Positions 5,794-25,633 of a stretch of 38,726 nucleotides of DNA are shown here, one piece after another. A program made the translations under genes and the position numbers. The stretch lies in the NCBI GenBank assembly GCA_038213805.1, contig JBBQSO010000049.1, positions 1 through 38,726 on the forward strand. The letters run 5' to 3'. The notes beneath the pieces were generated by a model, which saw only the letters and a program-made list of their open reading frames with translations, was not told where the DNA came from and searched no databases. Source of the stretch: Planctomycetota bacterium. GTDB lineage: Bacteria > Planctomycetota > UBA11346. Position 1 is the first letter of the stretch. The number at the start of each line of letters is the position of its first letter.

Positions 5794-7637
5794 GCGACCC
5801 CCAGGCGATGATTCAGCCAAGCTTCGAGCAGCAGCAGGCCGAGCAGCAGGGAAAGCAGCAGCGGCATCAGATCGCCGCGCCACCACGCCGTCGCCGCCTG
5901 GTCGCCGTGCGCCGGCGGGGCCGCGGACAGCACGGTCTCGCCGCTATCGAGCAGTGCGGCACTGCCGGTCTCACCGGCCTCGGTGCGCCAGGCGCCGAGC
6001 CGATCGAGCTCCACCAGATGGCTGGCGCTGCGCAGCGTGGTGCCGTCGCTCCAGGTCAGCTGCGCGCCTTTCAGTGTCAGCACTGTGCCAGTGTGGTGGC
6101 GTTCGCCGCCCTGGCGGTCGCGCTCGGGCTGGGTGCACCACAGCAACGCGTTGCCGATCAGCAGTGGCCACACGCTGGTCAGGGCCAGGCGTTCGCTGCG
6201 ATCCACCGCCGCCGCCAGCGCAACCAGCCGTGCGCCCTGGATCTCGCCCGCCGCGAGGAACGGCCCGGCGGGAGAGGACCACAACGGGGTCAGTGGCCCC
6301 GCGCTGGGCAGCACCGCGGTCTGGAGGGCGGCAACGCGCGCGCTGGCCACGCCGTAGAGCAGCGCATGGCCAGGATCGGCGAGGCGCGGCGAATCCACCG
6401 CCAGGCCGCCAGCGATGGCCAGCGCGCCGAGCGGCGCGCGACCCGCCGGCGGATCGATCACCAGCGCCGGCCGCGCGCTCCACTCCGGCGGCAGCCAGCC
6501 GACGAAGATCACCACATCGGCCGCCAGGTCGGCGCGCCAGGCGGTGGGTGCGATGCTCGCGACGCTGATCGCCCCGGCCTCGGCCAGGCCGGCCATGGCG
6601 ATGCTCACGAACGGATCGGGCCTGTCGCCGACCAGCAGGACGTGCAGGCGTTCCTGGCGCGGCAGCAGCAGCTCGACGCGGTCATCCAGATCCAGCACGT
6701 CGCCCGGCAGGCGCAGGGCCAGGCTGAGCAACGTGCCGACCGGGCGATCCAGCGGGATGGAGAGGCGCTGCACGGGGCAATGCCCGGTAGCGTCCGCGCT
6801 GAAACTCAGGGCGCGCAGGGTCACGGTGGTGCCGTCGAGCGCCGCGGTCAGTTCGGCGGCGGCGGTGGTGTCCGGCGGCAGCACCGCTTCGACCTGGACG
6901 AACACCTCGATCTGGCTGGGTTCCAGCGGGCGACGCCGCAGATCCGCGGCCGTGATGCCGGCGTTCAGCGCGCTGGACAGTGCCACGTTGCGCCCGCTCA
7001 GGGTCACGCCGGCGGGCAGCTGGCGGTCGGTGCCGGGCAGCGCCGGGTGGTCGCTGGCGTCCCACACCTGGGCCGGGACCGCGCTCGCCGCCAGCTGTCC
7101 GGCCAGGGCCAGGGCCGCCGCGCGCGCCGCCGGGTCGCCGGCCACCGGGCGCACGGCCACAGCGGACAGGGCGCGCAGCGCCGCGCCGTGGTCGACGGTC
7201 GGGGCGCAGACGATGTCGGCGCGCACATCGTGGGCGACCACGGCGACGGCGGTGCCGGCGGGCAGTGCGGCGAGCCGCGCCCGCGCATCGCCAAGGGCGA
7301 CGGCGAGCCGGCTGCGGCCGTCGCTGCCGCGCGCCGCCATCGAAGCGGAACGATCCACCAGGATAACCACGCTGCGCGCCGCTGCGCTGGGCGGCGCCAG
7401 GATCGGTCGCGCCAGCGCCGCGATGGTCAGCGCCACCGCCAGCAGGCTGAGGAGCAGCGCCAGCAGCCGCTTGAGCAGACGCAGCCACGGCGCATCGCGG
7501 GTGGTGCGGTGCAGGGCCGCGAAGAACGCCAGGGTGGTGGTGCGCAGCGTGCGCGGTCGTGGCCGCACCAGGTGGAGGAGCGCCGGCACGATGAGCAGCA
7601 GCAGGCCCCACAGCGCATGCGCGGTGAGGAAGATCAT
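5790..7637 (-). CDS. BatA-domain / VWA protein
   Basis: Start MIFLTAHALWGLLLLIVPALLHLVRPRPR (BatA-type N-terminus), second TM ending LARP, MIDAS-like VDRSASM, C-terminal TM ending LLEAWL. 615 aa. Confidence 0.85.
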   Translation of the reverse strand: MIFLTAHALWGLLLLIVPALLHLVRPRPRTLRTTTLAFFAALHRTTRDAPWLRLLKRLLALLLSLLAVALTIAALARPILAPPSAAARSVVILVDRSASMAARGSDGRSRLAVALGDARARLAALPAGTAVAVVAHDVRADIVCAPTVDHGAALRALSAVAVRPVAGDPAARAAALALAGQLAASAVPAQVWDASDHPALPGTDRQLPAGVTLSGRNVALSSALNAGITAADLRRRPLEPSQIEVFVQVEAVLPPDTTAAAELTAALDGTTVTLRALSFSADATGHCPVQRLSIPLDRPVGTLLSLALRLPGDVLDLDDRVELLLPRQERLHVLLVGDRPDPFVSIAMAGLAEAGAISVASIAPTAWRADLAADVVIFVGWLPPEWSARPALVIDPPAGRAPLGALAIAGGLAVDSPRLADPGHALLYGVASARVAALQTAVLPSAGPLTPLWSSPAGPFLAAGEIQGARLVALAAAVDRSERLALTSVWPLLIGNALLWCTQPERDRQGGERHHTGTVLTLKGAQLTWSDGTTLRSASHLVELDRLGAWRTEAGETGSAALLDSGETVLSAAPPAHGDQAATAWWRGDLMPLLLSLLLGLLLLEAWLNHRLGVA

Positions 7638-7690
7638 GACGCGCGCCGTCCCGGCACGGCGCCGAGCGCCAGCTCGCGAGGGATGCGGCC

Positions 7691-7816
7691 GATCGAACAG
7701 GAGGCGCGGAGACGCGGAGACCGGAGGAGGACGAGCGGAATGGCTCGTGAGCGGCTGGGCGGCGACAGCGAGTCCCACTCCTCTTGCCTCCGCGTCTCCG
7801 CGCCTCCTGTTCGATC
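7691..7816. repeat. REP/MITE-like element with a perfect 29-bp inverted repeat
   Basis: GATCGAACAGGAGGCGCGGAGACGCGGAG (7691-7719) is the exact reverse complement of 7788-7816. The 68-nt spacer contains smaller hairpins. Confidence 0.85.
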
Positions 7817-7848
7817 CGTTGTCGGTCGTCGCTTGGCGGTGGCCGCCA

Positions 7849-8751
7849 TCACGCCCCCGCCAGCGCGCAGCCGCGTTCGAGCCAGATGGTGAACTGCTCG
7901 GCGAAGGGCCGGTCGGTATGCCACGGCATGTGGTCGATCTCCCAGCCGGCACAGGCACGCGCGAGCTCGTCGCGCCAGGCGCCGAAAGCGGCGCGGTAGT
8001 GGGCCAGATCGTCGCGGGTCAACCACAGCCGCTGCACGGCGCCGCTCTCGACGCACTCCAGGCGCAGCTCGCCGTCCTGGGTGGGAGCCACCTCGGCCGG
8101 ATCGACTACATGCAGGACATGGGCCTCGGCCGGCCAGGCGCGCATCTGGCGCAGCGCGGGCAGGGCTTCGCCTGGGGAGCGCCCCAGGCAATCGGAGATC
8201 AGGAACACCAAGCCGCGCCGATCGCCGCCGCCCGCGAACCGGGCGAGGTCGGCGCCCAGCTCGCCGCTGCCGGAGAACGCCAGGCTGCGCAGCTTGGCGG
8301 CCAGGCCGTGGACGTGGCCCGGGCCCTTGAGCGGCGGCAATTCGCGGCGGCAGCCGCCGCCGATGGTGTGCAGCGACAGGCGGTGGCCGCCGGTCAGCGC
8401 CATGTAGCCCAGGGCCATGGCCAGGCGCAGCGCCTCGCGCCGCTTGGCCGGATGCGGTTCGGCCATCGAGGTGCTGCGGTCGATGATGAGGTGGACGTGG
8501 TATTCCTGCACCTCCTCGAAGACCCGCACGAACATGCGGTCGAGACGCGCGAAGGCGCGCCAGTCGATGGTGCGGAAATCGTCGCCGCGACTGTAGTGGC
8601 GGCGATCCTTGAACTCGCGGGTGTGGCCTGCCGCGGGCGTCTGCACCGGACCCTGTTTGCGCTGGCGGCGCCGGCGCCGCACCATCAACGCCAGCACGCG
8701 CAGCCGGGCGATGAAATCCGGATCGAGCAGGTCGTCGCGCTCAGCGTCCAT
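7849..8751 (-). CDS. DUF58 domain-containing protein (MoxR-associated)
   Basis: EFKDRRHYSRGDDFRTIDWRAFAR..RMFVRVFEEV, LIIDRSTSM and FLISD are typical DUF58 motifs. 300 aa. Start overlaps the upstream stop. Confidence 0.92.
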   Translation of the reverse strand: MDAERDDLLDPDFIARLRVLALMVRRRRRQRKQGPVQTPAAGHTREFKDRRHYSRGDDFRTIDWRAFARLDRMFVRVFEEVQEYHVHLIIDRSTSMAEPHPAKRREALRLAMALGYMALTGGHRLSLHTIGGGCRRELPPLKGPGHVHGLAAKLRSLAFSGSGELGADLARFAGGGDRRGLVFLISDCLGRSPGEALPALRQMRAWPAEAHVLHVVDPAEVAPTQDGELRLECVESGAVQRLWLTRDDLAHYRAAFGAWRDELARACAGWEIDHMPWHTDRPFAEQFTIWLERGCALAGA

Positions 8752-13912: not shown

Positions 13913-15610
13913 TCAATGTTCGAGTTGGCGGCGGAGCAGGGAGAAGTAGGCCTTCACCTGCTCGCGGCGGGCGGCAGGCAGCGGATCGGCGTCTAGGGCG
14001 CGCTCCTCGGCGTCGACCAGGGCGAGCGGCGTGGCCTCAGCGGCGAGCGCCGAGCCTTCCTGGTGAGCCTGCCCGGCGACCTGGCGCTGCTCGCTCTCAC
14101 CGTTGCCCTTCGCGGCGTCCACGGTGCTGGTCGCGGTGGCGGCGCGCGCGGTGGTGGGCGCCTGGTTGGCATCGCTGTGGCCGTGGCCCGCGCGCGAGCC
14201 GCCGGGAACACTGGCCAGGGCCAACCCGGCGGCGGCCATGCCTGTACCGGGCACCGGGATCCCGCCATCGGCTCCGCTGGCGCCGGCGGCGCCGGCGGCG
14301 CCCGCCGCAGGAGCGCTCCCGGGCACCGGGATGTTGGCGGCGTGCCCACCTGGCGGTGGGTTGCCGACGGCCCGGCGCGCCACGCCACCGGGTGGCGGTT
14401 GCTGACCGGCGCGGGCGGACGGCGGGATGCGGAGCGGTGGCAGATTGGAAAGGGTCAGTGTGCGCGCATCGCCCGGCGCGGCCGGGGCCAGCATGCGGCC
14501 ACCGCTGGCGCGCAGGCGATCGGCGAGCGCTCCGACCTGGCGTCCCGCGAGCTGGCGCTGGCCGGCGCGCGCGAGCTGGGCGCCAAGCTTCTGGAAGCTG
14601 GCGCCCGCTGCGCGGTGATCATTCGCCTGCAGCGCGGCGTTGGCCGCGGCGATCGCCTGCCCGGTCGGCGAACGGTCGCCGCTGGCCGCGGCGCGCTCCA
14701 GCGCCTGGGCGAGGCGGCGCTGCTCATCCAGGGTGAGGTCCTGGCGATCGAGCTGCTTGGCCAGGGCATCGGCCTCCGTAGCGGCCTTGATCAGGTCGGC
14801 GGCCTTCAGCGCGGCGGCGAGTTCGGCGGTGTCGGCGTGCCGCTCGAGCTCGGCGAGCAGGGCGGCGGAGGCGGCCTGGGTGTCATTGAGCAACGCGGCC
14901 AGTTCCTCGGCGCGCCGCGCCAGCTGATCAAGTTCGCGCAGCGCCTCGGGTCGGCCGAGGCCCTCCTCCTTGGCTTTCTCCTGGGCCTCGCGGATGCGCT
15001 TGCGCAACTCCTCGAGCTTGGCCTTTTCGGCCTGATCAAGTGCCGCGTCCGGTAAGCGCTCGGCGGCGCGCGCGACCTCGGCGGCCTGCGCGGCGAGGCG
15101 TTCGCGCGCTGCCCGGTCGAGTGGCACCCCGCCCGCAACCGGCGTCAGCGTGCCCGAACCGACCAGCAGCAGCGCGGCGAGCGGCGCGATCAGGCCCAGT
15201 GGTGGCACGCGCAGCGGCAGGATGCGCGACAGCTCGGCCCGCCATGCCGGCATCTGGGCGAGGGTCAGGTCGAGGTGGGCGCGGGCAAAACGGCCGGCGT
15301 CATCCCGCTGGCTGAAATCCCAGGCATTGAGCAGCGCGTCGTCGAGCCCCGCTGCGCGATCCCACGCGGCGAGCGCCGCCGCCAGCGAGGGCCGTCCGCG
15401 CCACACCCAGATCGCGGAGCCGAGCAGCCATCCCCCCACGGCCCACGCCACCCACGCCGGAACGCCCACGCCGGCGCAGCGCACCAGCACGGCCAGCGCC
15501 ACGGCGGCGAGGATCCACCAGGTGGCGGCCCGCTGCAGGCGCAGCCAGGCGCCGATCAGCAGCCTGCGCTGCGCGGCGAACGCCGCGGCACGAAGCGGGG
15601 TAGCGCCCAC
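13913..15610 (-). CDS. Membrane-anchored coiled-coil protein with a Gly/Ala-rich tail (MoxR-cluster accessory, DUF4175-like architecture)
   Basis: GTG 15610. Two N-terminal TMs, AAWDRAAGLDDALLNAWDF, a third TM, coiled coil, G/A/P-rich region and C-terminal LPAARREQVKAYFSLL. Confidence 0.75.
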   Translation of the reverse strand: MGATPLRAAAFAAQRRLLIGAWLRLQRAATWWILAAVALAVLVRCAGVGVPAWVAWAVGGWLLGSAIWVWRGRPSLAAALAAWDRAAGLDDALLNAWDFSQRDDAGRFARAHLDLTLAQMPAWRAELSRILPLRVPPLGLIAPLAALLLVGSGTLTPVAGGVPLDRAARERLAAQAAEVARAAERLPDAALDQAEKAKLEELRKRIREAQEKAKEEGLGRPEALRELDQLARRAEELAALLNDTQAASAALLAELERHADTAELAAALKAADLIKAATEADALAKQLDRQDLTLDEQRRLAQALERAAASGDRSPTGQAIAAANAALQANDHRAAGASFQKLGAQLARAGQRQLAGRQVGALADRLRASGGRMLAPAAPGDARTLTLSNLPPLRIPPSARAGQQPPPGGVARRAVGNPPPGGHAANIPVPGSAPAAGAAGAAGASGADGGIPVPGTGMAAAGLALASVPGGSRAGHGHSDANQAPTTARAATATSTVDAAKGNGESEQRQVAGQAHQEGSALAAEATPLALVDAEERALDADPLPAARREQVKAYFSLLRRQLEH

Positions 15611-15649: not shown

Positions 15650-17659
15650 TCATTTCAGCTCCTGCATCACTTGTTCGAGGCGCGCCTTGATCTCGGGATC
15701 GGTGGCGGTGCGCAGCGCCTCGTCGACATCCAGGCGGACGACCTCGCCGAGGTGGACCAGGGATTTGACCGCGCCCTCGCGCTTCGCCCAGTCGCGCTCG
15801 CCGAGCAGCGCCACCAGTTCGGCGATGCGTGCGCGCGTGGCCGGCGCGATCACCGGCGTCGGCACCTGCGCCTCGATCAGGTCCGAAGCTGGCACCAGCA
15901 GCCGGCCGCCAGCGCTGCGCAACGGGATCAGCACCTCCTCGATCAGGCCTTCGACCACGTCTCCGGTCCACAGTTCGAGGCGCACGCGCGGCTGGCGCGG
16001 CTGCCAGCCCTCGACCTCGTCGATGAGATTGGTCAGGCGGCGGATCTGCGCAGGCGGCACCGGTAGGCGGTTGCCTTCGAGACGCAGGTGCAGCTCGGGC
16101 AGGTCGATGGTGCCCGCCAGCACCTGCCCACCGATCAGCTGCAGCCAGGGAGCGCGCTGGATCTCGGGTTCGCGGGTCTCGTCGGCGCTCGCCTTGCGCT
16201 CGCCGAGGAGACCCATGACCGACGCCATCTCGATGTGGCGCGTGCCGGTCAAGCGAGTCTCGATCGCAATCGTGCCGCCGCTGCAGAAGGCGGTGAAGTG
16301 GCTGCCGTCGCGTAAGCTGATCTGGCTGCCGCCGCTTTCGGCCGGGGCCAGGGTGGCGATGTCCTCCAGGCGCAGTTCGAGGCTGCCCCACACCATGGCG
16401 CAGTGCAGGCGGCTGCTGCCGGGGCGGCCGACCAGGCGCTGATGATCGGCGGTCTCAACCAGCACCTCGCCCGGCGGCAGGCCTTCGCCGGCCTGGGGAC
16501 GGCGCAGCAGCCAGCCGACGCGCCCCGCATTCAGGGAGATGGTCTGACCGGTGGCGAGCGCGAAGGTGCAGGCCGCTTCGGGATCAACGCCGGTTAAGAC
16601 CGCGCCATCGCGCAGGAAGACGCGCGGTGCGGCACCACCGGCCAGCGCCATGACCTCATTCCACGGGATGCGGTGGCGCTGCTCGGCCACCTTCACCGAA
16701 AGATCGCCGCTGGCGGCGTCGCCGCGCAGGCGCGTGCCCGCACCCAGGGCCAGGAGGTCGCTGTCGTCGCCGCGCGCTTCGACCAGGGCCTCGGGAATGG
16801 CCGAAGCCAGTCCAGCGTCGTCGCTGCTGGGTGCGGCCCCACCAGCACCACCGGTGTTGGCGATCAGGTGGCGCAGGCCGGGCGCCAGATCAGCGACGAA
16901 CGCGGCCTGGCGCCACGGCTTGAGGACATTGCGCAGGGCGGCGGGGGTGGTCACCCCGGAGCGTTCGCTCATGCAGTGGACCAGCGCCAGCGCCCGTCCC
17001 GCCGGGATGGTCAGCGTCCAGGTCACCATCACCTGGTTGTTGTTGACCATGACGGTCGGCTTGAGTTTGCTGCGCGGCGAGCACAGCCCGAGTACGACGT
17101 CGCGACCTCCGCTATTCGGTTGGCCCAGGATCACCACCGCGCCATCCTTCGCACCGAGTGGCCCCGGCACGAAGGGGCCATTCTCGCCGACGAGCTGCAA
17201 CGCGCCCGAATTGAACTAGGAGCGATAGGTCAGGATGGTCGACACCGGCGCTGTGCCGGTATTGTGCACGATGTCGACCCACCGCACCGCGCCGGCTTTG
17301 GGCATGCTGCGCGCGCGCCGGATGACGGTGAAGCCGCCGGTGCCGTTGCCGGACTGGACCACGCTGGTCAGCACCAGTTCACTGCCGTCGGCGCTCTGCT
17401 GAGCCTGCGCCTGGGCGTTGAACTGGCTGCGCTGATCGATGATCATCATATTGAGATTGTTGAAGGTGTTGCCATCGATGGCGCCGGAATTATCGAACTG
17501 CCAAGAGCCGCCTTGGCCATCGGTCAGGGCGTTGTTGGTGGCGGGCACCAGCTTGGCAGGCAGGAAGTCGGCCGGCTTGACCGCCTCACCGGCGATGATC
17601 ACGCCGGAGACGAGCAGGAGCAGGATTAGCGGGAATGGCAAGCGGCAGCGCGGCATCAC
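15650..17659 (-). pseudogene. Secreted protein paralogous to the upstream gene, interrupted by a single in-frame TAG at 17216-17218 (nonsense allele, read-through or sequencing error)
   Basis: ORFs 17216-17659 and 15650-17200 share one frame: ...TILTYRS*FNSGALQLVGENG.... Signal peptide at the N-terminus, similarity to 17656-19731 continuing across the stop, and a HEAT-like C-terminus (LGERDWAKREGAVKSL). Confidence 0.75.
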
Positions 17660-19731
17660 TTGGGCTCCAGGACTTTTTCGACTTCGCCCGCGTCTTCGCC
17701 TTTCAGTTGGACCTCTTCATCGGCGGCCGGCGTCGCATCGGCGGCCGGCGTCGCATCGACGGCCGGCGTCGCATCGACGGCCGGGAAGCCGTTGCCGGTC
17801 GGCCCGGCGGGGTCAATAGGAGCGCCAGGCGCGGCCGGCGTCCCCGCTGCTGGCGGGTCACCAAACGTCTGGGAATGGGCCGGCCGTTTCCCGGATGCGG
17901 GTGGCGTTTTCCCTGGGGCCTCGGACTCGGGCTTGGTTTCGGGTTCGATCTCGGGTGGGGCCTTGATCTTCCACGACAGGATGCGCTCTGCCGGCACGCG
18001 GAAGGTCCAGCCACCAGCCACGAAACCTACCGTGCCGTCGGCCGGCAGGCCGACCAGGCGGCTGCCATCCTTCAGCACCAGCGCCAGGCCGGGGCCGTCT
18101 TCCGGCCGTTCGATGGCGGCGATGCGCTCACACGGCACGGCGCTGTCCTTGCCGCCGGCGCGCAGCACCAGGGTCGCCCCGGCCAGGCCGCCGGCCAGGC
18201 GGTCGCCATTGGCGAGCTGCGCCCCATCGTCGGGCGGGTCATCGCTCGACAGCTTGGTGACGGCCCGGCGATACGAGATCAAGGTACCCACCGCCACCGG
18301 GATGGTGCCGAAACGGCTGGTCAGCACCTGCAGCTCGCTGGTTTCCGGCACCGCGCGCAGGCTCGAGCCATCGTCGCAGGTCACCAACCATGCCGGGGTC
18401 GGCTCGACCACGCGGGTGATGTGCGCGATACGCGCGAGCGGCAATTCGACGTGGCCCCACACGCAGGTCAGGGCCAGGGGTGCCGCCAGGCCGGTGACAC
18501 CCAGGCGCGTGCCGTCGACTTCTTCGAGGATGCCGACCAGCCCGGCCGGTGGCACCAGATCGGCGCGGCGCGGACGGGTCGCCATCCACAGCATGTGCAC
18601 GGGATCCACCGGCAGCGATACTCCGGCCTCGGAATCCAGGGCGAGGCTGCCGGCGATGCGCGTTGCCGCCAGGCTCTCACCGCTGCGCAGGTGCAGGATC
18701 GCGGTCGGATCGCCGCCTTCGCCGCCGGCGAGCTCGTCGACCGTCACCGTCACCGCGCCCTGGGGCGTGGTCACGGTCAGCGGCCCGCCGCTCAGCTGGC
18801 CGCGCATGCGTTCGGCCTCGGAGCGACCGACCCCGACCAGGTCCATGGCGCCGGCGTCATCGACGCCGGCGCGTTCCAGCAGCTGGGCGATGGCGGGCAG
18901 GCGGGTGAGCTCGTCGTCCTCGTCCACGCCGGCGACCGCGCCGACGGAGTGGAAGTTCACCACCTGGCGCATCAGCGCCGGCGCCAGCTCGGGCTTGATC
19001 AGACTGGCCTTCCACAACGTCTTCACCGCATCAGCCACCTGGGTCGCCTGCATGCCGCTGCGCTGCAGGACGTAGTGGTAGATGACGCGGGTCTGTTTTG
19101 GCGCCAGGTTGACCGACCAGGTGACCTGGTAGGTGCGATTCTGCTGGACGGAGATCTGCGGTGGGCTGGCCGACTTGGCCTCGCCAAGGATCCAGATCAC
19201 CGTCGGGCGCTGCGGATTCTGGATGGCGGCGATGCCGACGCAGCCCTTGGGCAGGGCGGCCCCGTTGCATGGCTTGCCGTCGCTCCACACCGTCCCCTGG
19301 CAGTTGTTACCGAGGTTGCTGGTCATCAAGAGGGTGACGCTCTGCTTGGTCGCCCCGGTGTTGACGAGCACCTCGGCGTAGCGCAGCGCATTGCGGGCCA
19401 CCATGCGGATCCGCCGCGTCACCGACACGTTCTCCTGCGGCTGGCAGGTGATCACCCATTCGGCGTTGTCCGCGGTCTTCATGAACCCTTGCGGTCCGAA
19501 GGGGCGACCATTGACCTGCAGCACTTCGCCGCTGTCGAAGCAGTCGTTGGTGCCGTCGGCGACTTGGCCGTCGCGCTGCACATCCCACCTCATGCCCAGA
19601 CTGTCGGTGGCCGGATTGTTGTTGGCCGGGATCAGCTTTTCTTCGGCGGCGCCCAAAGGCCCACATCCCAGGCAGACTAGCACCAGCCCGGCCAGGGAGC
19701 GGCGAACGGTACAACAGGATACCATGCTCAT
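17656..19731 (-). CDS. Secreted hypothetical protein, first gene of the MoxR/VWA operon
   Basis: ATG 19731 (or 19725). Signal-peptide-like RRSLAGLVLVCLGCGPLGA, repeated LxxGxxLxG beta modules and a Pro/Ala/Asp-rich tail. Stop overlaps the next start. About 691 aa. Confidence 0.8.
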   Translation of the reverse strand: MSMVSCCTVRRSLAGLVLVCLGCGPLGAAEEKLIPANNNPATDSLGMRWDVQRDGQVADGTNDCFDSGEVLQVNGRPFGPQGFMKTADNAEWVITCQPQENVSVTRRIRMVARNALRYAEVLVNTGATKQSVTLLMTSNLGNNCQGTVWSDGKPCNGAALPKGCVGIAAIQNPQRPTVIWILGEAKSASPPQISVQQNRTYQVTWSVNLAPKQTRVIYHYVLQRSGMQATQVADAVKTLWKASLIKPELAPALMRQVVNFHSVGAVAGVDEDDELTRLPAIAQLLERAGVDDAGAMDLVGVGRSEAERMRGQLSGGPLTVTTPQGAVTVTVDELAGGEGGDPTAILHLRSGESLAATRIAGSLALDSEAGVSLPVDPVHMLWMATRPRRADLVPPAGLVGILEEVDGTRLGVTGLAAPLALTCVWGHVELPLARIAHITRVVEPTPAWLVTCDDGSSLRAVPETSELQVLTSRFGTIPVAVGTLISYRRAVTKLSSDDPPDDGAQLANGDRLAGGLAGATLVLRAGGKDSAVPCERIAAIERPEDGPGLALVLKDGSRLVGLPADGTVGFVAGGWTFRVPAERILSWKIKAPPEIEPETKPESEAPGKTPPASGKRPAHSQTFGDPPAAGTPAAPGAPIDPAGPTGNGFPAVDATPAVDATPAADATPAADEEVQLKGEDAGEVEKVLEPK
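17718..17784. repeat. In-frame 18-bp tandem repeat (~3.7 copies) encoding PA(V/A)DAT
   Basis: catcggcggccggcgtcg x2, catcgacggccggcgtcg, catcgacggccgg. Confidence 0.9.
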
Positions 19732-19799
19732 GACGAACCGTCCGCTGGTGGGATGAACGTGTGTGTGCCCGGTTAACGCAGGGTCCGAGCCGCGGTGCG

Positions 19800-19828
19800 A
19801 AGGTAATCGATCCGCCGCCGCACGCCAA
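19800..19828 (-). promoter_or_regulatory. Candidate sigma70-type promoter for the MoxR/VWA operon
   Basis: Minus strand TTGGCG-N17-TACCTT, about 70 bp upstream of ATG 19731. Confidence 0.4.
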
Positions 19829-20188
19829 TTCCTAATCACCCCTGCGTCAGCCCCGGCGAGTGCGACGCCGCCGGGAGGGACGGGAAGGGGCGGGAAGGCG
19901 GCACCGGGGCGCTTGCGGCCAGGACCCGGACCGGCGCGACCCCACTAGACACTGCCACCGCCCGTCAGCTGATACGTGCTGCCGCGGATGCAGCTCGACC
20001 ACCTGCGGCGCAAACTGGCAGGCTGGACGACCTCACCAGCACCCTTCAGACTTGCCCCGCATGAAAGCCAAGGCTGATCAGCGCCTGTCAGGAGCTCGGC
20101 ACCAGTCGCCGAGAGCCGGAACACGCTGGACTCGCTGAACCAACCCGCTGTGCGGGCGCTGGCCAGGCGAACGTCACGTCAAAACAAC

Positions 20189-21246
20189 GGGGCATCTGGG
20201 TTTCAGGTGAGTCGAGTAGCTCGCACCGGGCCGATTTTCTGGCATGATCGGTCATGCGCGATCGCGCACTGTACCCAAAAACCTCGGCCATTCGTCCCCA
20301 TGGAAGGTCGCCGACATCCGTTTGTGCCTTGCCGACCGTCAGGTAGTCGTGGTGGTGGGGCATGAGCCCGGCACGCCGCCCTCCTGCTTTCGCCGCTTAC
20401 AAAGGTTGGCGATCACCACGAAATGGCGCCCATAGGAATACCTGACGACGACGACGCGACCTGCACCTTACTGCGACAAGAGCCGCCCGATCTTCAAGCG
20501 CAATTCAAGCAGTCTGGTGGGATCCTGCTCGTAACTCGTGATGCCGGTCACCAGCGTTGTGACCGCCTTGATCCTCCCCCGATTCTGCGTACGGGTGGTT
20601 GAGCGGCTTTGGTCCGCTGGAGTTTAAAGTCCATCGGCCTGAAATTACCGATGGAGGTGTGGTCGAGAGTCTTGTTGTAGAAGACTATGATGTGCTTGAA
20701 AATGGCGTTCTAGGCTTCAGTGGGTGTCTGGAAATTCTGTCGATGGATCACCCTTGCCCGGGGTGATGCTGATTGGGACGGGGGCTTCGTCAGCGCGTAC
20801 TCTCGTGTACCTTATGTGGTAGGCATCCGCCAACGCCTTCCTGGAACGGATCCCAAATACCGACCGGAAAATCTGCTGCGAAGGGATCCACATCGCCTGC
20901 TATTTTGGCAAGCCTGTCGATGATGTCCGCATCCACGAGCACACCGCGCTGCCCGCCCCTGACTGAAGCTGCATCCGCACCCATACCAAGCACCACTGGC
21001 TGCGAAAATCCGCAGGTCGCCGCCACCAGCAAGAACCCCCTCTGGGGCTTTCTCAATGCCGTGGTCACTGCCCCAACCAACGCCATCGGAGAGTCGCTCA
21101 ACACTCGCATCCGGAAGATCAAGGCCATGGCCTGCGCGTCTCGGAACCGTGAATGGTTCCGTCGAGCCATCCTCTTCCATCTCGGGGGACTCGACCTCCT
21201 GCCGACCGATGCGAGCTACCCGACCCACACGAATCCCTGATGCCCC
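20189..21246 (+). mobile_element. Decayed ISL3-family insertion sequence (transposase pseudogene)
   Basis: Imperfect ~41-bp terminal IRs: GGGGCATCTGGGTTTCAGGTGAGTCGAGTAGCTCGCACCGG vs the reverse complement of the right end, GGGGCATCAGGGATTCGTGTGGGTCGGGTAGCTCGCATCGG. Flanks AAAACAAC / CAAACCAC match 6/8 (degenerate TSD). Frameshifted ISL3 fragments: MRDRALY..LG..SPWKVADIRL (from 20254), [45 protein letters not shown]...[16 protein letters not shown]. Confidence 0.85.
20569..20751 (-). mobile_element. IS3-family remnant (right IR plus OrfB C-terminal fragment) nested in the ISL3
   Basis: Minus strand reads IHRQNFQTPTEA*NAIFKHIIVFYNKTLDHTSIGNFRPMDF, matching the IS3 pattern 'FxTRxEAxxAIFEYIEVFYNxxRxHSxIGYxSP'. 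It ends in ...CGTACGCAGAATCGGGGGAGGATCA, the TG...CA-type terminus. Confidence 0.75.
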
Positions 21247-21256
21247 CAAACCACTT

Positions 21257-22756
21257 TCACCGCGGCCCGCTCGCCGCCTTCGCCTCCGGCGTCGTCGCGC
21301 GCGTGAAGAACCACTCCCGCCACTTCAGTAACGGTCCCTTCCTCTCCACCGCGGCCGCTGCCGGGTCGTAGCCCAGTCCGTCCTTCTGCACCTCGTGCAA
21401 CGGCGCGAATGCGGCGGCGCGTCGCGACTGGTCGTCGTCACCCAGGGCCTCAAGCAGGCCCTGGAAGAGGGCGACGTCGTCGTCGAAGTTGCCAAGCAGC
21501 GGCAGCGCCGCCGCGCTGGCCAGGCCAGCAACCGCGCTGCCGCGCTCATCGGCGGGCGCCTTCGGCCGGGCGGCGGCGCGGGCTAGCGCCAGCTGCGCCT
21601 GGTCGTCGTGCCAGTCGGCGATGACGGCCAGCGCCTTGAGCGCGGCGAGGCGCACGGTCGGCGCCTTGTCCTGGAGCAGCTTGACCAGCGCCGGCACGGT
21701 CAGCTCCTGGTCGAACATGGCGTGGGTGCAGGCGGTGGCCGCGGCGGCGCGCACCGCGGCGCTGTCCGAGGTGAAGGCCTTGGCCAGCACCGCCGCACCC
21801 TGTGGACCGGCGATGCGCAGCAGCTCGTCCCAGGCCGGGTTGCTGGCAAACAGTTCGACGGCCTTCTTCGGTGCGGCGTACTGCCTGATGAATTTCTCCT
21901 CGTCAGGGGCCAGCGGCTGCTGCTTGTGGCGGCGCGCGTCGATCCAGCGCACGAAGTCGGCGCGCACCGGCAGCACCCCGACGATGTTAAGGTGGTCGTG
22001 CCCGTCGAGCTCACGGTAGACGGCGCGGTAGTGCTTCTGCTGGAGGATGGTGCGCAGCTTGCGGGAGTTGCCGACGTCGTTGTCCTTGTCCTCGTCACCG
22101 TGCACCAGGTAGAACTCGGACTGCTCCGGCGCATCCTTGACGTCGGGCAGGCGGTCGCCGTAGCCCGCGTAGCGCACGTCGCCGGCGAACAGTTCGAGAT
22201 GGCGGCTGGTCATGGTGAAACCCATCCACGAGCCGTTGGAATGGCCGACGATGAAGATGCGGCGCCGGTCGATGGGGTAGACCGAGGTCAGCCAGTCGAC
22301 GGTCTTCAGCACCGGCTCCTCATCGACGTCGGCCCAGGCCTTGCCCGAGGATTTCAGGCCGATGACGATGTACTTGTCGGCCAGCCCCTCGACCTTGACC
22401 GATTCGTGCACCCACGGCGCGATGTGCTCGGGCACGCCGCCGCTGCCGTGGAAGGCGAGGATCAGGCCCAGCGTGCGGTGCTCCGGCAGCTTCGGCGGCA
22501 CCCAGATGTGGTAGTGCATGATCATCTCATCGGCCTTCGGATCGCCCTCCTTGGGCACCTTGGCGCGCATCCACTTGAGGTCGTCCTGGAATTCGCCGAG
22601 GCGCGCCGGTGGCTGGGTGCTCCAGTCCAGGTGCGGGACGATCAGGCCGCCATAGGGATTGAGCGTCGCGGCCGGGGCATTGGCCGCGCTCGCGGGCCCG
22701 ACGCAGGCCAGCGCCAGCGCGGCGCAGCAGATCAGGAAACGGGGATGCGCGGGCAT
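21257..22756 (-). CDS. Secreted alpha/beta-hydrolase (esterase/peptidase-like) with C-terminal HEAT repeats
   Basis: ATG 22756 with a GGAG RBS (alternative start 22774). Signal peptide ...ALACVGPASA, AFHGSGG, IDRRRIFIVGHSNG (nucleophile Ser), LVHGDED (Asp), LDGHDH (His), HEAT repeat LLQDKAPTVRLAALKAL. Confidence 0.85.
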   Translation of the reverse strand: MPAHPRFLICCAALALACVGPASAANAPAATLNPYGGLIVPHLDWSTQPPARLGEFQDDLKWMRAKVPKEGDPKADEMIMHYHIWVPPKLPEHRTLGLILAFHGSGGVPEHIAPWVHESVKVEGLADKYIVIGLKSSGKAWADVDEEPVLKTVDWLTSVYPIDRRRIFIVGHSNGSWMGFTMTSRHLELFAGDVRYAGYGDRLPDVKDAPEQSEFYLVHGDEDKDNDVGNSRKLRTILQQKHYRAVYRELDGHDHLNIVGVLPVRADFVRWIDARRHKQQPLAPDEEKFIRQYAAPKKAVELFASNPAWDELLRIAGPQGAAVLAKAFTSDSAAVRAAAATACTHAMFDQELTVPALVKLLQDKAPTVRLAALKALAVIADWHDDQAQLALARAAARPKAPADERGSAVAGLASAAALPLLGNFDDDVALFQGLLEALGDDDQSRRAAAFAPLHEVQKDGLGYDPAAAAVERKGPLLKWREWFFTRATTPEAKAASGPR

Positions 22757-22796
22757 GGCCACTCCAGTTGTCATCGGGACCCTGAGGAGGAACCGC

Positions 22797-24746
22797 TCAG
22801 GGATTCGTGGGGAAACGCTTCATGTACCAGCGGCGCCAGGCCTGCACGGCGTCGCGGCGCGCGGCGGGCACGCCGTCGAGCGGAAAGCCGGGCCCGTCGG
22901 AGGCCCCGCGCGCGAGCGCCGCCGCGCCAGCCTGGCGCAGCACCGGGTCCTCGTCCTCGAGCAGGTGGATGCAGGTCTCGAAGACCGGCGCGTCCTCGCT
23001 GAAGTGCGCGCAGCGGGTGAAGGCGATGCCGCCGGTGAGCCTGGCGAGGACTTCCAGGCGCTCCTCGCGGGCGTGGCCGCGCGTGCCCGTGAACAGGCAC
23101 AGCGCGACCAGCGCGTCAGCGTCGCCGCGCTCGGCGGCGCCGGCCAGCCCGGCCACCGCCGCGTGGCGCAGGCCCGCGTCCTTGTCCTCGAGCAGGCCCG
23201 CCAGCGACGCGGTCACCGCGCCCGAGAAGTCGGAGCGCGCGGTCAGGGTCGCCGCGGCCAAGCGGATCGCCGGCGGATGCTGGTGCATGGCCCGCGCCAC
23301 CACCAGGCCGGCTTGCGGCCCGCCGATGCGCACCAGTTCGCCGAGCGCGGCGGGATCGGCCCACAGCCGGTCCTGCTCGGACTCGCGCGCGAAGCGCGCC
23401 AGCAGCTTGCGCTCGTCATCCGTCGGGGGCAGCGGCTTGACGCGCACGCCGTCGATCCAGTGCGCGAGGTCGGCGCGCACGTCGGGATCCTCCCACGGGG
23501 CGCCGTGCGCCAGGCCGGGCAGCTCGCGGTAGACATAGCGGTAGCCGAGCGTGCGCAGCTGGTCGCGCACCACGCGCGAGGCCTTGACCGGGACATCGAT
23601 ATCGGCATCGCCATGCGCGAGGTAGTACTCGATGCCGTTCTCGGCCGCGTTCGCGACCTTCTTCAGGTCGGTGGTGCCGCCGCCGAACAGCGCGGCGATG
23701 CCGGCCACCGCCTCGGGATGGTGGCTGGCGAGATGCTGCGCCATCCACCCACCGTTAGAGACGCCGATCACCACGATGCGCCGCGCATCAATGGGGTAGG
23801 TGCGGTGCAGCCACACCAGTAAGGCGAGCAGCGGCCCCTCGTCCGCGGGTTCCCAGTTGCGGCCCTGGGACTTCGGGCCGACGACCACGTAGTCCCCGGC
23901 GCTGCCGCGCGCTGCAATCAGCTCGGCCAGCGAGTTGCCGGGCCAGTGCTCGTTGCCACCCGCGCCGTGCAGGGCCACCAGCAGGCCCAGGCGCGGCGTG
24001 GCCGGCAGCGTGTGGGGCAGGTGCAGGGCATAGCGCACTGACGGCAGCTCCGGCCCCTCGCTGAAGACCCCGTCCCGGGCGTCGAAGCGCGGACGCGCGC
24101 TCGCGAGCACCGGGCCATCCGCGCGCGGCACCGGGCGCGCACCCGCCATGGTGACGACGCGCGCCTCGTCCGCGCCGGTTTTCGCCGCGGTGAGCGCCTC
24201 AGGAGCCTGGGCCGGAAGCGGCGCCGCGGCCAGAGCAGGCGCTGACGCGGCATCCCCGGGGACCAGTGCGGGCACGGGCGCTGCGCTCGCCACCAGCGGC
24301 GCGGCAATCGTGGTGCGGGCCGGCTGGGCCGGCGGCGGCAGCGGGACGCGCAGCGGCTGGCTGCCCATCTGCGCATGGACGGCATCCGTCGGCTGGGCCT
24401 GTGGACGCGGTCCGGCGACCAGCCACCAGGTGAGGATCCCGACCAGCGCGGCGGCGGCGGCGGCGAAGCGCAGCAGCGCGCGGTGCGCGCGCGCCGGCGC
24501 CACGCGCAGGCTGGCCGTGCGCACCGCGCGGCGCTCGCGCGCCGTCCGCTCCGGCGCGCTCTCGGCCGCGGCGGGCACCATGGTCGTTCCGGCGAGGGCT
24601 TCGTACATCTCGCACTCGGCGAGCGCGGCGGCGTAGAGCTGCGCGACCAGCGCCGGCTCCGTGGCGATGCGCGCACGCAGAGCCGCGACCTCCTCAGGGG
24701 TCGCCGTGCCGGAGCAGCAGCGCGCGATGAGCCGGTCGTCAGACAT
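22797..24746 (-). CDS. Putative anti-sigma factor fused to an alpha/beta-hydrolase + HEAT module
   Basis: ATG 24746 overlaps the sigma stop by 8 nt. N-terminus DRLIARCCSGTATPEEVAALRARI is anti-sigma-like, followed by a single TM (LLRFAAAAAALVGILTWWLVAG), a Pro/Ala linker, GVSNGG / HGDAD / GLAH and HEAT repeats. 649 aa. Confidence 0.8.
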   Translation of the reverse strand: MSDDRLIARCCSGTATPEEVAALRARIATEPALVAQLYAAALAECEMYEALAGTTMVPAAAESAPERTARERRAVRTASLRVAPARAHRALLRFAAAAAALVGILTWWLVAGPRPQAQPTDAVHAQMGSQPLRVPLPPPAQPARTTIAAPLVASAAPVPALVPGDAASAPALAAAPLPAQAPEALTAAKTGADEARVVTMAGARPVPRADGPVLASARPRFDARDGVFSEGPELPSVRYALHLPHTLPATPRLGLLVALHGAGGNEHWPGNSLAELIAARGSAGDYVVVGPKSQGRNWEPADEGPLLALLVWLHRTYPIDARRIVVIGVSNGGWMAQHLASHHPEAVAGIAALFGGGTTDLKKVANAAENGIEYYLAHGDADIDVPVKASRVVRDQLRTLGYRYVYRELPGLAHGAPWEDPDVRADLAHWIDGVRVKPLPPTDDERKLLARFARESEQDRLWADPAALGELVRIGGPQAGLVVARAMHQHPPAIRLAAATLTARSDFSGAVTASLAGLLEDKDAGLRHAAVAGLAGAAERGDADALVALCLFTGTRGHAREERLEVLARLTGGIAFTRCAHFSEDAPVFETCIHLLEDEDPVLRQAGAAALARGASDGPGFPLDGVPAARRDAVQAWRRWYMKRFPTNP

Positions 24747-25314
24747 CCCCGAGGCCCTCGCACGGCTCGGCGCTCTGCAGCCGCCGACCGATGCACGTTT
24801 CGAGCGCGCGGCGCGAACGGCTGATGGCCACGTCGACGGCATTGACGCGCATCCCCAGGCGCTCGCCGATGGCCTGCGAGGTCAAGCGCTCGCCATACTT
24901 CCCGGCGAGCAGCGCACGGGCGCGCTCGCTGAGCTTCTCCAGACAGGCGCGCAGGGCCGCGAGACGACGCCCGCGGTGGTCGGGGTCGATGAGCTGCCGT
25001 TCGGCGCGCTCCGCCTGGCGGTCGAGCTGGTCAAGGATCCCGTCGTCAAGCGGGATCAGGGCGCCGCCGGGCCGCGCCTGGCGGCGATAGTGCTGGAAGA
25101 GCATGTGCCGGGCGATGCCGCGCAGCCAGGCGCCGAAGGGCCGCGTCGGATCGTAGCTGTCCTGGCTCTCGAGGGCCGCGCGGAAGACCTCTTGGACGAG
25201 ATCGTCGGCGGTACTGCGGTCGCCGGTGCTGGCCACGAAGTAGGCGGTCAGCCAGCGCTGGTTCTGCTCGACGATTGCGCGCGTCCACAGGTCATGGGGG
25301 GAGGAGGGCGCCAT
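24739..25314 (-). CDS. ECF RNA polymerase sigma factor
   Basis: Region 2 ADDLVQEVF...YDPTRPFGAWLRGIAR and region 4 LRACLEKLSERARALL..KY.ERLTSQAIGERLGMRVNAVDVAISRSRRALETCI. 191 aa. Confidence 0.95.
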   Translation of the reverse strand: MAPSSPHDLWTRAIVEQNQRWLTAYFVASTGDRSTADDLVQEVFRAALESQDSYDPTRPFGAWLRGIARHMLFQHYRRQARPGGALIPLDDGILDQLDRQAERAERQLIDPDHRGRRLAALRACLEKLSERARALLAGKYGERLTSQAIGERLGMRVNAVDVAISRSRRALETCIGRRLQSAEPCEGLGDV

Positions 25315-25325
25315 CGCCGGGAATT

Positions 25326-25350
25326 TGACACCCGATGCCCGGGCCTGACA
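25326..25350 (-). promoter_or_regulatory. Candidate ECF-type (autoregulatory) promoter
   Basis: Minus strand TGTCA-N15-TGTCA, ending 11 nt before the sigma ATG. No RBS is evident. Confidence 0.4.
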
Positions 25351-25468: not shown

Positions 25469-25625
25469 CTAGACCCTAGACCCTAGGTATCGTGATTCGT
25501 GGATCGGCTGGCATCCGGGCACTGCGCTCCGCGGCCATGCGAGCCCAGGGCGCTGCAGTCGATCCCCGCATCACGTCAACCGCTCGAACGCGCTTCCGAC
25601 CTGCCTTCCCTAGGGTCTAGGGTCT
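25469..25625. repeat. Nested inverted-repeat element with heptamer (CTAGACC) arms, immediately downstream of frr
   Basis: AGACCCTAGACCCTAGG (25471-25487) pairs perfectly with CCTAGGGTCTAGGGTCT (25609-25625). An inner IR at 25491-25510 / 25556-25575 matches 17/20. Confidence 0.8.
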
Positions 25626-25633
25626 GAGTTCTC

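Follow-up and report, generated by a model that had tools for sequence, protein, structure and literature searches.

The window analysed here is positions 1 to 38,726 of contig JBBQSO010000049.1 from a Planctomycetota genome, assembly GCA_038213805.1, which we label G000 and call the window's own genome. Three genes occupy positions 21257-25350, all on the minus strand. They encode an extracytoplasmic function (ECF) sigma factor, a 649-residue protein that joins an anti-sigma-like N-terminus to a tethered esterase with HEAT repeats (the fused protein), and a 505-residue copy of the same esterase-HEAT module with a signal peptide (the twin). The three genes form a conserved, narrowly distributed module of one genus-level Planctomycetota clade. 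The sensor of this module seems to have been made from the enzyme that it controls, because the tethered esterase is the sister copy of the secreted esterase next door.

The genes are closely packed. The sigma gene lies at 24739..25314, the fused gene at 22797..24746 and the twin at 21257..22774. The start of the fused gene overlaps the stop codon of the sigma gene as ATGTCTGA (a gap of -8), and 23 nucleotides separate the end of the fused gene from the start of the twin. The open frame of the fused gene covers 22797-24842 (681 amino acids); the ATG at 24746, which opens MSDD and gives 649 amino acids, is the start common to all homologues, and residue numbers below count from it. The twin has an alternative start at Met7. 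An ECF sigma gene overlapping a 649-residue gene, with a secreted hydrolase-HEAT gene behind it, is the layout given in a preliminary description of this DNA, and the minus-strand frames bear it out. The three genes would be co-transcribed as one operon, which the 23-nucleotide gap extends to the twin.

The sigma factor (191 residues) has only sigma2 and sigma4 domains (Pfam Sigma70_r2, 7.8e-15; Sigma70_r4_2, 1e-9). Its NCBIfam score against TIGR02937 is 77.2 bits, over the cut-off of 42.9, which makes it an ECF (group 4) sigma factor. The best-scoring family is TIGR02989 (Sig-70_gvs1, Rhodopirellula/Verrucomicrobium), at 118.8 bits and thus below the cut-off of 124.55. On these scores the protein is best called 'TIGR02989-like', a relative of the FecI-like expansion in the Planctomycetota-Verrucomicrobiota-Chlamydiota (PVC) group. 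The window's own genome holds about 30 TIGR02989-like sigma genes, and eight of these paralogues pass the TIGR02989 cut-off.

Architecture of the fused protein and its twin

An AlphaFold2 model of the 649-residue protein (60-sequence alignment, mean predicted local distance difference test score (pLDDT) 81.5) divides it into five parts. Residues 1-53 (24588..24746) form three helices (3-11, 17-29 and 32-52; pLDDT 77-95) and are predicted to be cytoplasmic. An Arg-rich stretch leads into a single transmembrane helix, residues 84-111 (24414..24497), at the top Kyte-Doolittle window of the protein (residues 94-112). A disordered tether follows at residues 116-216 (24099..24401; pLDDT <50), made up of 29% Ala and 18% Pro. 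From about residue 220 to 644 the chain adopts an alpha/beta fold and then helical repeats, with pLDDT >90 throughout. This is the order that had been read from the sequence alone: an anti-sigma-like N-terminus, one membrane helix, a Pro/Ala linker, an alpha/beta-hydrolase and HEAT repeats.

The 30 residues before the membrane helix contain seven Lys and Arg, the 30 after it two. Because of this bias, and of the signal-peptide-like start of the free paralogue, the protein most plausibly runs N-in/C-out, which would place the esterase-HEAT module outside the membrane.

The esterase-fold domain spans residues ~220-435 (23442..24089), as delimited by phmmer, Foldseek and the model. Its nearest structural match in Foldseek is the C-terminal domain of LC-Est1 (3wyd; TM-score on the target 0.86, 29% identity, root mean square deviation 2.5 Å). 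Further neighbours are, in order, the Thermotoga esterase 3doh, and then cutinases and polyethylene terephthalate hydrolases (PETases) and acetyl-xylan and feruloyl esterases of carbohydrate esterase family 1 (CE1). The segments GVS330NG, HGDAD382 and H414 align with LC-Est1C (phmmer E 7e-18). By sequence and fold the domain is an alpha/beta-hydrolase of the LC-Est1/EstA type, and its triad reads Ser330 (23757-23759), Asp382 (23601-23603) and His414 (23505-23507). Models for polyhydroxybutyrate (PHB) depolymerases match only in part (TIGR01840, 25.4 bits against a cut-off of 107.85; NF050058, 54 against 150); with scores this far below the cut-offs, the fused protein is therefore no member of those families.

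The HEAT solenoid occupies residues ~443-649 (22797..23420, stop codon included), and the model stacks 13 consecutive helices over residues 443-644. In the window's fused copy the HEAT match reaches 17.2 bits, below the cut-off; HEAT or HEAT_2 is matched in 20-21 of 22 fused members, and both these relatives and the model support the assignment. The 22 are the window protein, 16 homologues and five further cluster representatives from the searches described below. To our knowledge, no member of the esterase-HEAT family has been characterised.

The twin, placed by BLASTP, Pfam and comparison of loci, carries the same module behind a hydrophobic, signal-like N-terminus that ends PASA/AN. Its HEAT repeats pass the Pfam cut-offs (HEAT, 41 bits over 23.5; HEAT_2, 33.1 over 27.7). 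It is 36% identical to the fused protein over 412 collinear amino acids (BLASTP E 7e-58), and its triad is Ser179/Asp229/His261. Thus the collinearity of the two modules, the motif pairs quoted for them, the intact Ser-Asp-His triad in both and the signal-like start of the free copy were all described correctly from the sequence.

The tethered copy appears catalytically intact, judged by its triad. Ser, Asp and His are kept in 22 of 22 fused proteins, compared with 34 of 38 free ones; the other four free proteins have lost both Ser and His. Two tandem esterase-HEAT paralogues elsewhere in the own genome (G000:C9:72211-75077) cluster with the Ser/His-less proteins P0043, P0066, P0070 and P0071, and are probably pseudoenzymes.

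Selection was estimated between the window and the corresponding locus (L008) of its closest relative as the ratio of nonsynonymous to synonymous substitution rates (dN/dS). For the fused protein it is 0.23 in the N-terminus, 0.76 in the tether, 0.155 in the esterase and 0.25 in the HEAT repeats; for the twin it is 0.136 in the esterase and 0.129 in the HEAT repeats (about 0.14 overall), and for the sigma factor 0.064. Purifying selection acts on both copies of the module; the tether alone drifts, nearly neutrally.

Predicted sigma binding by the N-terminus

The N-terminal 53 residues are conserved across the 22 fused homologues, at 35% overall identity. As a single-sequence query, residues 1-110 recovered the two closest relatives only, which marks the region as too short and too divergent for that kind of search. 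Comparison of profiles with hhalign is more informative. Aligned against the N-termini of 26 partner proteins from the own genome, 17 fused N-termini gave a probability of 96.3% (E 1.9e-9, 49 columns); by this profile comparison, the fused N-terminus is probably homologous to those of FecR-type anti-sigma proteins.

These partners belong to the paralogous sigma factors. In the own genome the TIGR02989-like sigma genes are mostly trailed by a gene for a 360-730-residue protein, with a usual overlap of 4 or 8 nucleotides. The partner proteins begin with a short helical N-terminus, a basic stretch and a membrane helix, and 18 of 20 scanned carry a FecR domain. FecR is often followed by Laminin_G_3 (LamG_3), PA14 or NPCBM, and in one partner by a domain resembling a cellulase of glycoside hydrolase family 5 (GH5). 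The last (L047, G000:C1:104509-106395) has a DUF4880-like N-terminus, FecR and the GH5-like domain (E 1.3e-4, just under the cut-off), and would be a second enzyme fold at the anti-sigma sensor position in this genome. FecR (PF04773) has no match in the window's fused protein at E<=0.1, and among the 25 families shown, of 26 matched by the 22 fused members at E<=1, it is absent. The two related proteins that do carry FecR, P0018 and P0023, form a separate clade.

We co-folded the sigma factor (alignment of five sequences) with residues 1-62 of the fused protein (alignment of 22), alongside three controls. The interface score, ipSAE, was 0.75 (runs 0.75, 0.69 and 0.79), and the best of the three controls scored 0.00. 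The runs share at least 77% of their contacts, and the partner pLDDT is at least 78. The mark applied here is reached by 116 of 157 solved complexes and by 2 of 215 mismatched pairs. The contacts fall on sigma residues 20-33 (sigma2) and 134-172 (sigma4). The N-terminus is thus predicted to bind the sigma factor across both domains, as an anti-sigma factor would, and the sigma-binding role first proposed from the sequence is strengthened.

The N-terminus could instead be a mere membrane anchor, its adjacency to the sigma gene having no regulatory meaning. Although it matches no Pfam anti-sigma model, the co-fold passes where its controls score nothing, and the 53 residues are both conserved and, by profile comparison, probably homologous to FecR-type partner N-termini. 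Moreover, the gene start overlaps the sigma stop in the window, a sigma gene stands directly ahead in every complete locus (five of five), and for anchoring a membrane helix alone would suffice. We consider a plain anchor very improbable.

Conservation, history and putative promoter of the module

A search of 5.8 billion proteins returned 16 further fused homologues of 634-646 amino acids (98-100% query coverage, 35-80% identity), and one 807-residue protein with a FecR domain ahead of the esterase-HEAT module. Searched with a profile, 1.84 billion cluster representatives yielded 91 clusters at E<=1e-30, of which six are full-length fused proteins and most others free forms of 430-500 amino acids. 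Five genomes have the three genes in this same order (sigma, fused gene, twin): the window's own, G401 (L008), G288 (L009, the same as L017), G402 (L010) and G142 (L016). A sixth contig (L011) begins within the fused gene and continues into the twin. The twin thus directly follows the fused gene in six of six loci.

The flanks differ. In the window and L008 the neighbours are frr, pyrH and flgA, and in L009 and L010 they are ribosomal protein genes; therefore the three genes travel as a unit. Such recurrence bears on the simplest doubt, namely that the fusion is a local accident, an assembly chimera or a decaying gene. The assembly is a draft of 180 contigs, and a transposase remnant lies just downstream of the operon. 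However, 22 fused sequences from independent sources, five genomes with the whole arrangement and purifying selection on all domains refute the accident, which is now barely credible. The homologues are fused as well, not split over two genes, and the earlier worry about a fusion confined to this contig falls away.

The remnant, at 20773-21240 on the plus strand, is the C-terminal part of an ISL3-family transposase (PF01610, E 2.6e-4) and sits in a stretch of lower GC content within 20001-21000 (0.59 against about 0.70). L008 is without about 1 kb at this site: between the twin and the following gene it has about 370 nucleotides, where the window has about 1400. Upstream of the operon, at 25469-25630, the heptamer CTAGGGT is repeated in two runs of opposite orientation, about 130 nucleotides apart, in the interval that separates frr from the putative sigma promoter. 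An 18-mer of this repeat occurs 87 times in the own genome (overlapping counts), mostly as paired runs, and L008 has four tandem copies in the same place; the runs look like a dispersed intergenic repeat. Beyond the operon, two large paralogues of 727 and 516 amino acids (17656-19839 and 15650-17200, both on the minus strand) are 24% identical and have no Pfam match. The 727-residue protein has a signal-like start, and L008 is the only locus where it is likewise conserved behind the operon.

A quick IQ-TREE analysis (LG+G4) of 72 esterase-HEAT modules, with fused rows trimmed to residue 201 onward and P0018 and P0023 to residue 331 onward, gives the history. All 22 directly fused modules fall into a single clade (SH-aLRT 99), with a nine-member clade (99) as its sister (support 93); the latter contains the five operon twins, three free proteins and the C17 paralogue of the own genome. 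On this topology, sensor and twin arose by a duplication before the lineages split and have been co-inherited since. The FecR-containing fusions P0018 and P0023 lie in a different part of the tree (support 98), so that the module has been joined to membrane signalling proteins at least twice, independently. Scans of metagenome contigs with P0018 and with alignment A6 found none with a FecR-containing fusion. Two larger frames considered as anti-sigma fusions (G388:C111 and G245:C36) were rejected: a secreted free protein accounts for one of them, and a pair of neighbouring genes for the other.

Co-inheritance invites another explanation, in which what is sensed is the twin itself. Free or loaded with substrate, the twin would bind the tethered copy, either by contacts between the HEAT solenoids or by dimerisation of the esterases, and its state would be the signal, as feedback or in the manner of FecA acting on FecR. 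The twin is always encoded directly behind the fused gene, the two are co-inherited sister clades, and HEAT repeats are typical protein-protein interaction surfaces. A shared substrate would explain the co-inheritance equally well, however, and the HEAT repeats of the fused protein evolve faster than those of the twin (dN/dS 0.25 against 0.13), with no sign of tight co-evolution. We judge sensing of the twin to be improbable.

Upstream of the sigma gene lies a putative ECF promoter, TGTCAGG-N14-GTCAAA (25324..25350, minus strand), found by aligning five upstream regions. The pattern TGTCAGG-N14-GNCAAW is exact in all five genomes, and in all five it ends 9 nucleotides before the ATG. No Shine-Dalgarno-like sequence was seen between the GNCAAW box and the ATG in the five genomes; this, together with the spacing, argues for a short or absent leader, with a predicted transcript start 0-3 nucleotides ahead of the ATG. 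The motif first described here, TGTCA-N15-TGTCA, is present at 25324-25350, but its second TGTCA is not conserved; what persists is TGTCAGG and the GNCAA box. The proposal that it is an autoregulated promoter survives in this revised form. The operon is probably autoregulated through the motif, a prediction from its conservation. Induction of the twin by the sigma factor had also been proposed. That would hold with the twin as the third gene of the operon, and not through a promoter of its own: with its 23-nucleotide gap the twin lacks one, and would be induced simply as part of the autoregulated operon.

The exact motif occurs ten times in the five genomes, five times at the sigma genes, and the reversed control pattern not at all. 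By eye, it was not seen in the 70 bases upstream of 28 other paralogous sigma genes. Two of the five other exact matches lie upstream of, and on the correct strand for, orthologous secreted-protein genes in the own genome (on C25) and in G402, 74% identical. The product in the own genome is a secreted lectin-like protein of ~235 amino acids (G000:C25:14498-15333; L068, L075), with TGTCAGG-N14-GGCAAA upstream. It has no Pfam match itself, and PF06439 matches 3 of 49 homologues. Its model is a concanavalin-like beta-sandwich (pLDDT 89.9), and the best PDB matches are a 1,3-1,4-beta-glucanase, CBM66, GH16 enzymes and lectins (TM-score 0.5-0.69, 8-16% identity). The orthologue in G288 has CGTCAGG-N14-GCCAAA, with one mismatch, upstream. 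Counting both exact and one-mismatch forms (two of each), the motif precedes this unlinked gene in four genomes, which suggests a small regulon; the concanavalin-like, DUF1080-related protein is probably a second target of the sigma factor.

The regulon may be larger, as the relaxed pattern GTCAGG-N16-CAAW has 2-21 matches per genome against 0-2 for the control. One relaxed match, cGTCAGG-N14-GGCAAT, stands 74 nucleotides before the ATG of a second free esterase-HEAT gene in G288. Within 700 nucleotides upstream of the own genome's esterase-HEAT paralogues (C17, C11, C5, C9a and C9b) there is no TGTCAGG-type motif; the C5 paralogue has one GTCAGG without a second box. In the window itself, GTCAGG-N14-GGCAAA at 15264-15289 (plus strand) is a relaxed match that apparently lies inside overlapping open frames.

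A proposed sensing mechanism and its closest parallels

ECF sigma factors belong to the commonest signalling devices of bacteria, and only for a minority of them is the signal known. We think it reasonably probable that the three genes are a self-contained ECF module, in which the N-terminus holds the sigma factor, the tethered esterase senses the substrate of the twin, and proteolysis brings about release. The three-helix N-terminus of 53 residues would hold the sigma factor at the inner face of the membrane. Outside, the tethered copy would recognise the ester on which the free enzyme acts, probably a polyester or an esterified glycan. With substrate bound, the tether would be differently exposed to proteases, a cut would follow in or near the tether, and an RseP-type site-2 protease would then free the sigma factor. 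Peptidase_M50 genes are present in the own genome. In FecR, the N-terminal fragment stays bound to the sigma factor and is needed for its activity; since the sigma factor here is FecI-like, it might likewise leave the membrane still carrying the fragment that it needs. Once free, it would transcribe its own operon, the twin included, from TGTCAGG-N14-GNCAAW, and also the unlinked gene for the concanavalin-like secreted protein.

A glycan context is hinted at, weakly, by the lectin-like fold, the CE1-type neighbours of the esterase, and a polysaccharide deacetylase gene of family CE4 in L010. The deacetylase gene (PF01522, 9.9e-22) lies at 7476-8450 on the plus strand of L010, directly after the twin, in this relative only.

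Several observations weigh against such a mechanism. The full-length form occurs in at least 3 of 401 sampled Planctomycetota genomes, all of one genus, from which a fourth genome (89% complete) yielded nothing in the same search; the search used a stricter first look, so its counts are a floor. DUF4880, zf-HC2 and RskA are absent from the 25 families shown, of 26 matched by the 22 fused members (Pfam E<=1). Many sigma/anti-sigma complexes have solved structures, so the co-fold may reflect likeness to those complexes and not binding by this copy. As for the regulon, about 0.5 chance matches to the motif are expected per genome (our estimate from base composition); the lectin-like orthologue in G142 has a one-mismatch form, TGTCAGG-N14-TGCAAT, ~280 nucleotides upstream; and G401, the closest relative, has no close orthologue of the gene (best identity 35%). 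Release of the sigma factor, finally, may answer to a general envelope signal and not to ligand binding.

The last point leads to a plainer arrangement. The 649-residue protein would primarily be an esterase tethered to the surface, with an N-terminus that sequesters the sigma factor in a generic anti-sigma role. Misfolding, protease activity or another general envelope signal would then trigger release of the sigma factor, and the substrate of the esterase would not. An intact triad under purifying selection is what a working enzyme would have, and a long flexible tether would let it reach substrates away from the membrane. We nevertheless find this arrangement unlikely. The module has been joined to anti-sigma-type proteins at least twice; paralogous anti-sigma factors carry ligand-binding modules (LamG_3, PA14, NPCBM and GH5-like) at the equivalent place, which fits a sensor position; and an output that includes the sister enzyme follows the logic of substrate-induced expression.

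Sensing of the substrate of the twin by the tethered copy has a bolder form, which we put forward as doubtful. Catalysis itself would gate signalling: the tethered esterase would be acylated by its substrate or turn it over, and only in the acyl-enzyme or product-bound state could the tether be cut and the sigma factor set free. It fits the triad, which is kept in all 22 fused proteins while some free paralogues have lost it, and it fits the independent second fusion to a FecR-type protein. By analogy it would be comparable to BlaR1, but built on an anti-sigma factor. Sensing through acylation by this protein is purely hypothetical.

If the tethered esterase is the sensor, the output gives a clue to its likely ligand, since sensor and secreted enzyme are sister copies within one operon. 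The conserved promoter motif in turn points to a probable second target of the sigma factor. The module is unusually easy to test: one sigma factor, one anti-sigma factor, one motif and one enzyme family.

How does this system compare with those already described? The closest solved relatives of the esterase part, the LC-Est1 C-terminal domain and Thermotoga EstA, are soluble enzymes without HEAT repeats, membrane anchor or sigma-binding domain. In the ESTHER classification LC-Est1 and TmEstA stand in 'Abhydrolase_5', with substrate class 'undefined' (PMC12103068).

The FecI/FecR pairs of the TIGR02989 expansion share more of the design. There too an ECF sigma gene is overlapped by the gene for a single-pass protein with a short helical N-terminus (probably homologous, by profile comparison), then a basic stretch and a membrane helix. 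The fused protein differs in lacking FecR, which in the partners is often combined with a carbohydrate-binding module; a disordered tether and the esterase-HEAT module stand in its place. This locus also lacks a TonB-dependent transducer, and its sigma factor scores just under the TIGR02989 cut-off. By descent, the sequences suggest a FecI/FecR-like ECF pair that lost its FecR domain.

BlaR1 and MecR1 offer a parallel of another kind. They are membrane sensors whose outer part has an enzyme-like fold with a serine nucleophile and is a relative of the resistance enzymes, and they pass the signal on by proteolysis. The outer domain here is likewise a serine-nucleophile enzyme fold, and signalling by proteolysis is proposed. 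BlaR1, however, is no anti-sigma factor: its cytoplasmic zinc-protease domain cleaves a repressor, and its sensor is a penicillin-binding fold. Neither Peptidase_M56 nor a penicillin-binding sensor domain is among the Pfam matches of the fused protein at E<=0.1, so it is not of the BlaR1/MecR1 type.

Searched at the level of titles and abstracts, the literature returned no description of an anti-sigma factor with an esterase, hydrolase or HEAT domain. The main text of the ECF reclassification paper assigns FecR-like anti-sigma factors to groups ECF239, ECF240, ECF242 and ECF243 and does not contain the words 'hydrolase' or 'esterase'; its supplementary group descriptions could bear on the point (PMC7826278).

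By analogy, the closest case in design is SigI6/RsgI6 of Clostridium thermocellum. According to PMC4711584, RsgI6 is an anti-sigma factor ending in a GH10 module that binds xylan and is only very weakly active; the module shares 57% identity with the xylanase Xyn10D, whose predicted promoter SigI6 activated, and SigI6 is autoregulated. SigI/RsgI pairs signal through proteolysis, of which RseP carries out the last step (PMC10328401, PMC12203970). What the two systems would share is an outer sensor with an enzyme fold and with a paralogue among the enzymes of its regulon, under an autoregulated sigma factor. Together with the GH5-like partner in the own genome, this gives the concept a precedent and qualifies the preliminary view of the system as a candidate for something undescribed. 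The components differ: SigI is not an ECF sigma factor, its partner has an RsgI_N domain, and the phylum and the enzyme fold are others. RsgI_N has no match in the 649-residue protein (Pfam, E<=0.1), which is thus no member of the SigI/RsgI family. RsgI6 represents, in Firmicutes, a design in which the sensor is a copy of the regulated enzyme; the module described here would carry this design over to ECF sigma factors of Planctomycetota and to the alpha/beta-hydrolase fold. It also differs from RsgI6, on the account cited, in that the paralogous enzyme is encoded in the same operon and the triad of the sensor is fully conserved, where the module of RsgI6 is very weakly active. With the triad intact, one may ask whether signalling reads the catalytic reaction as such, to us the most attractive point of the system. 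If it does, a copy of an output enzyme would control, through its own chemistry, the ECF pathway that produces that output.

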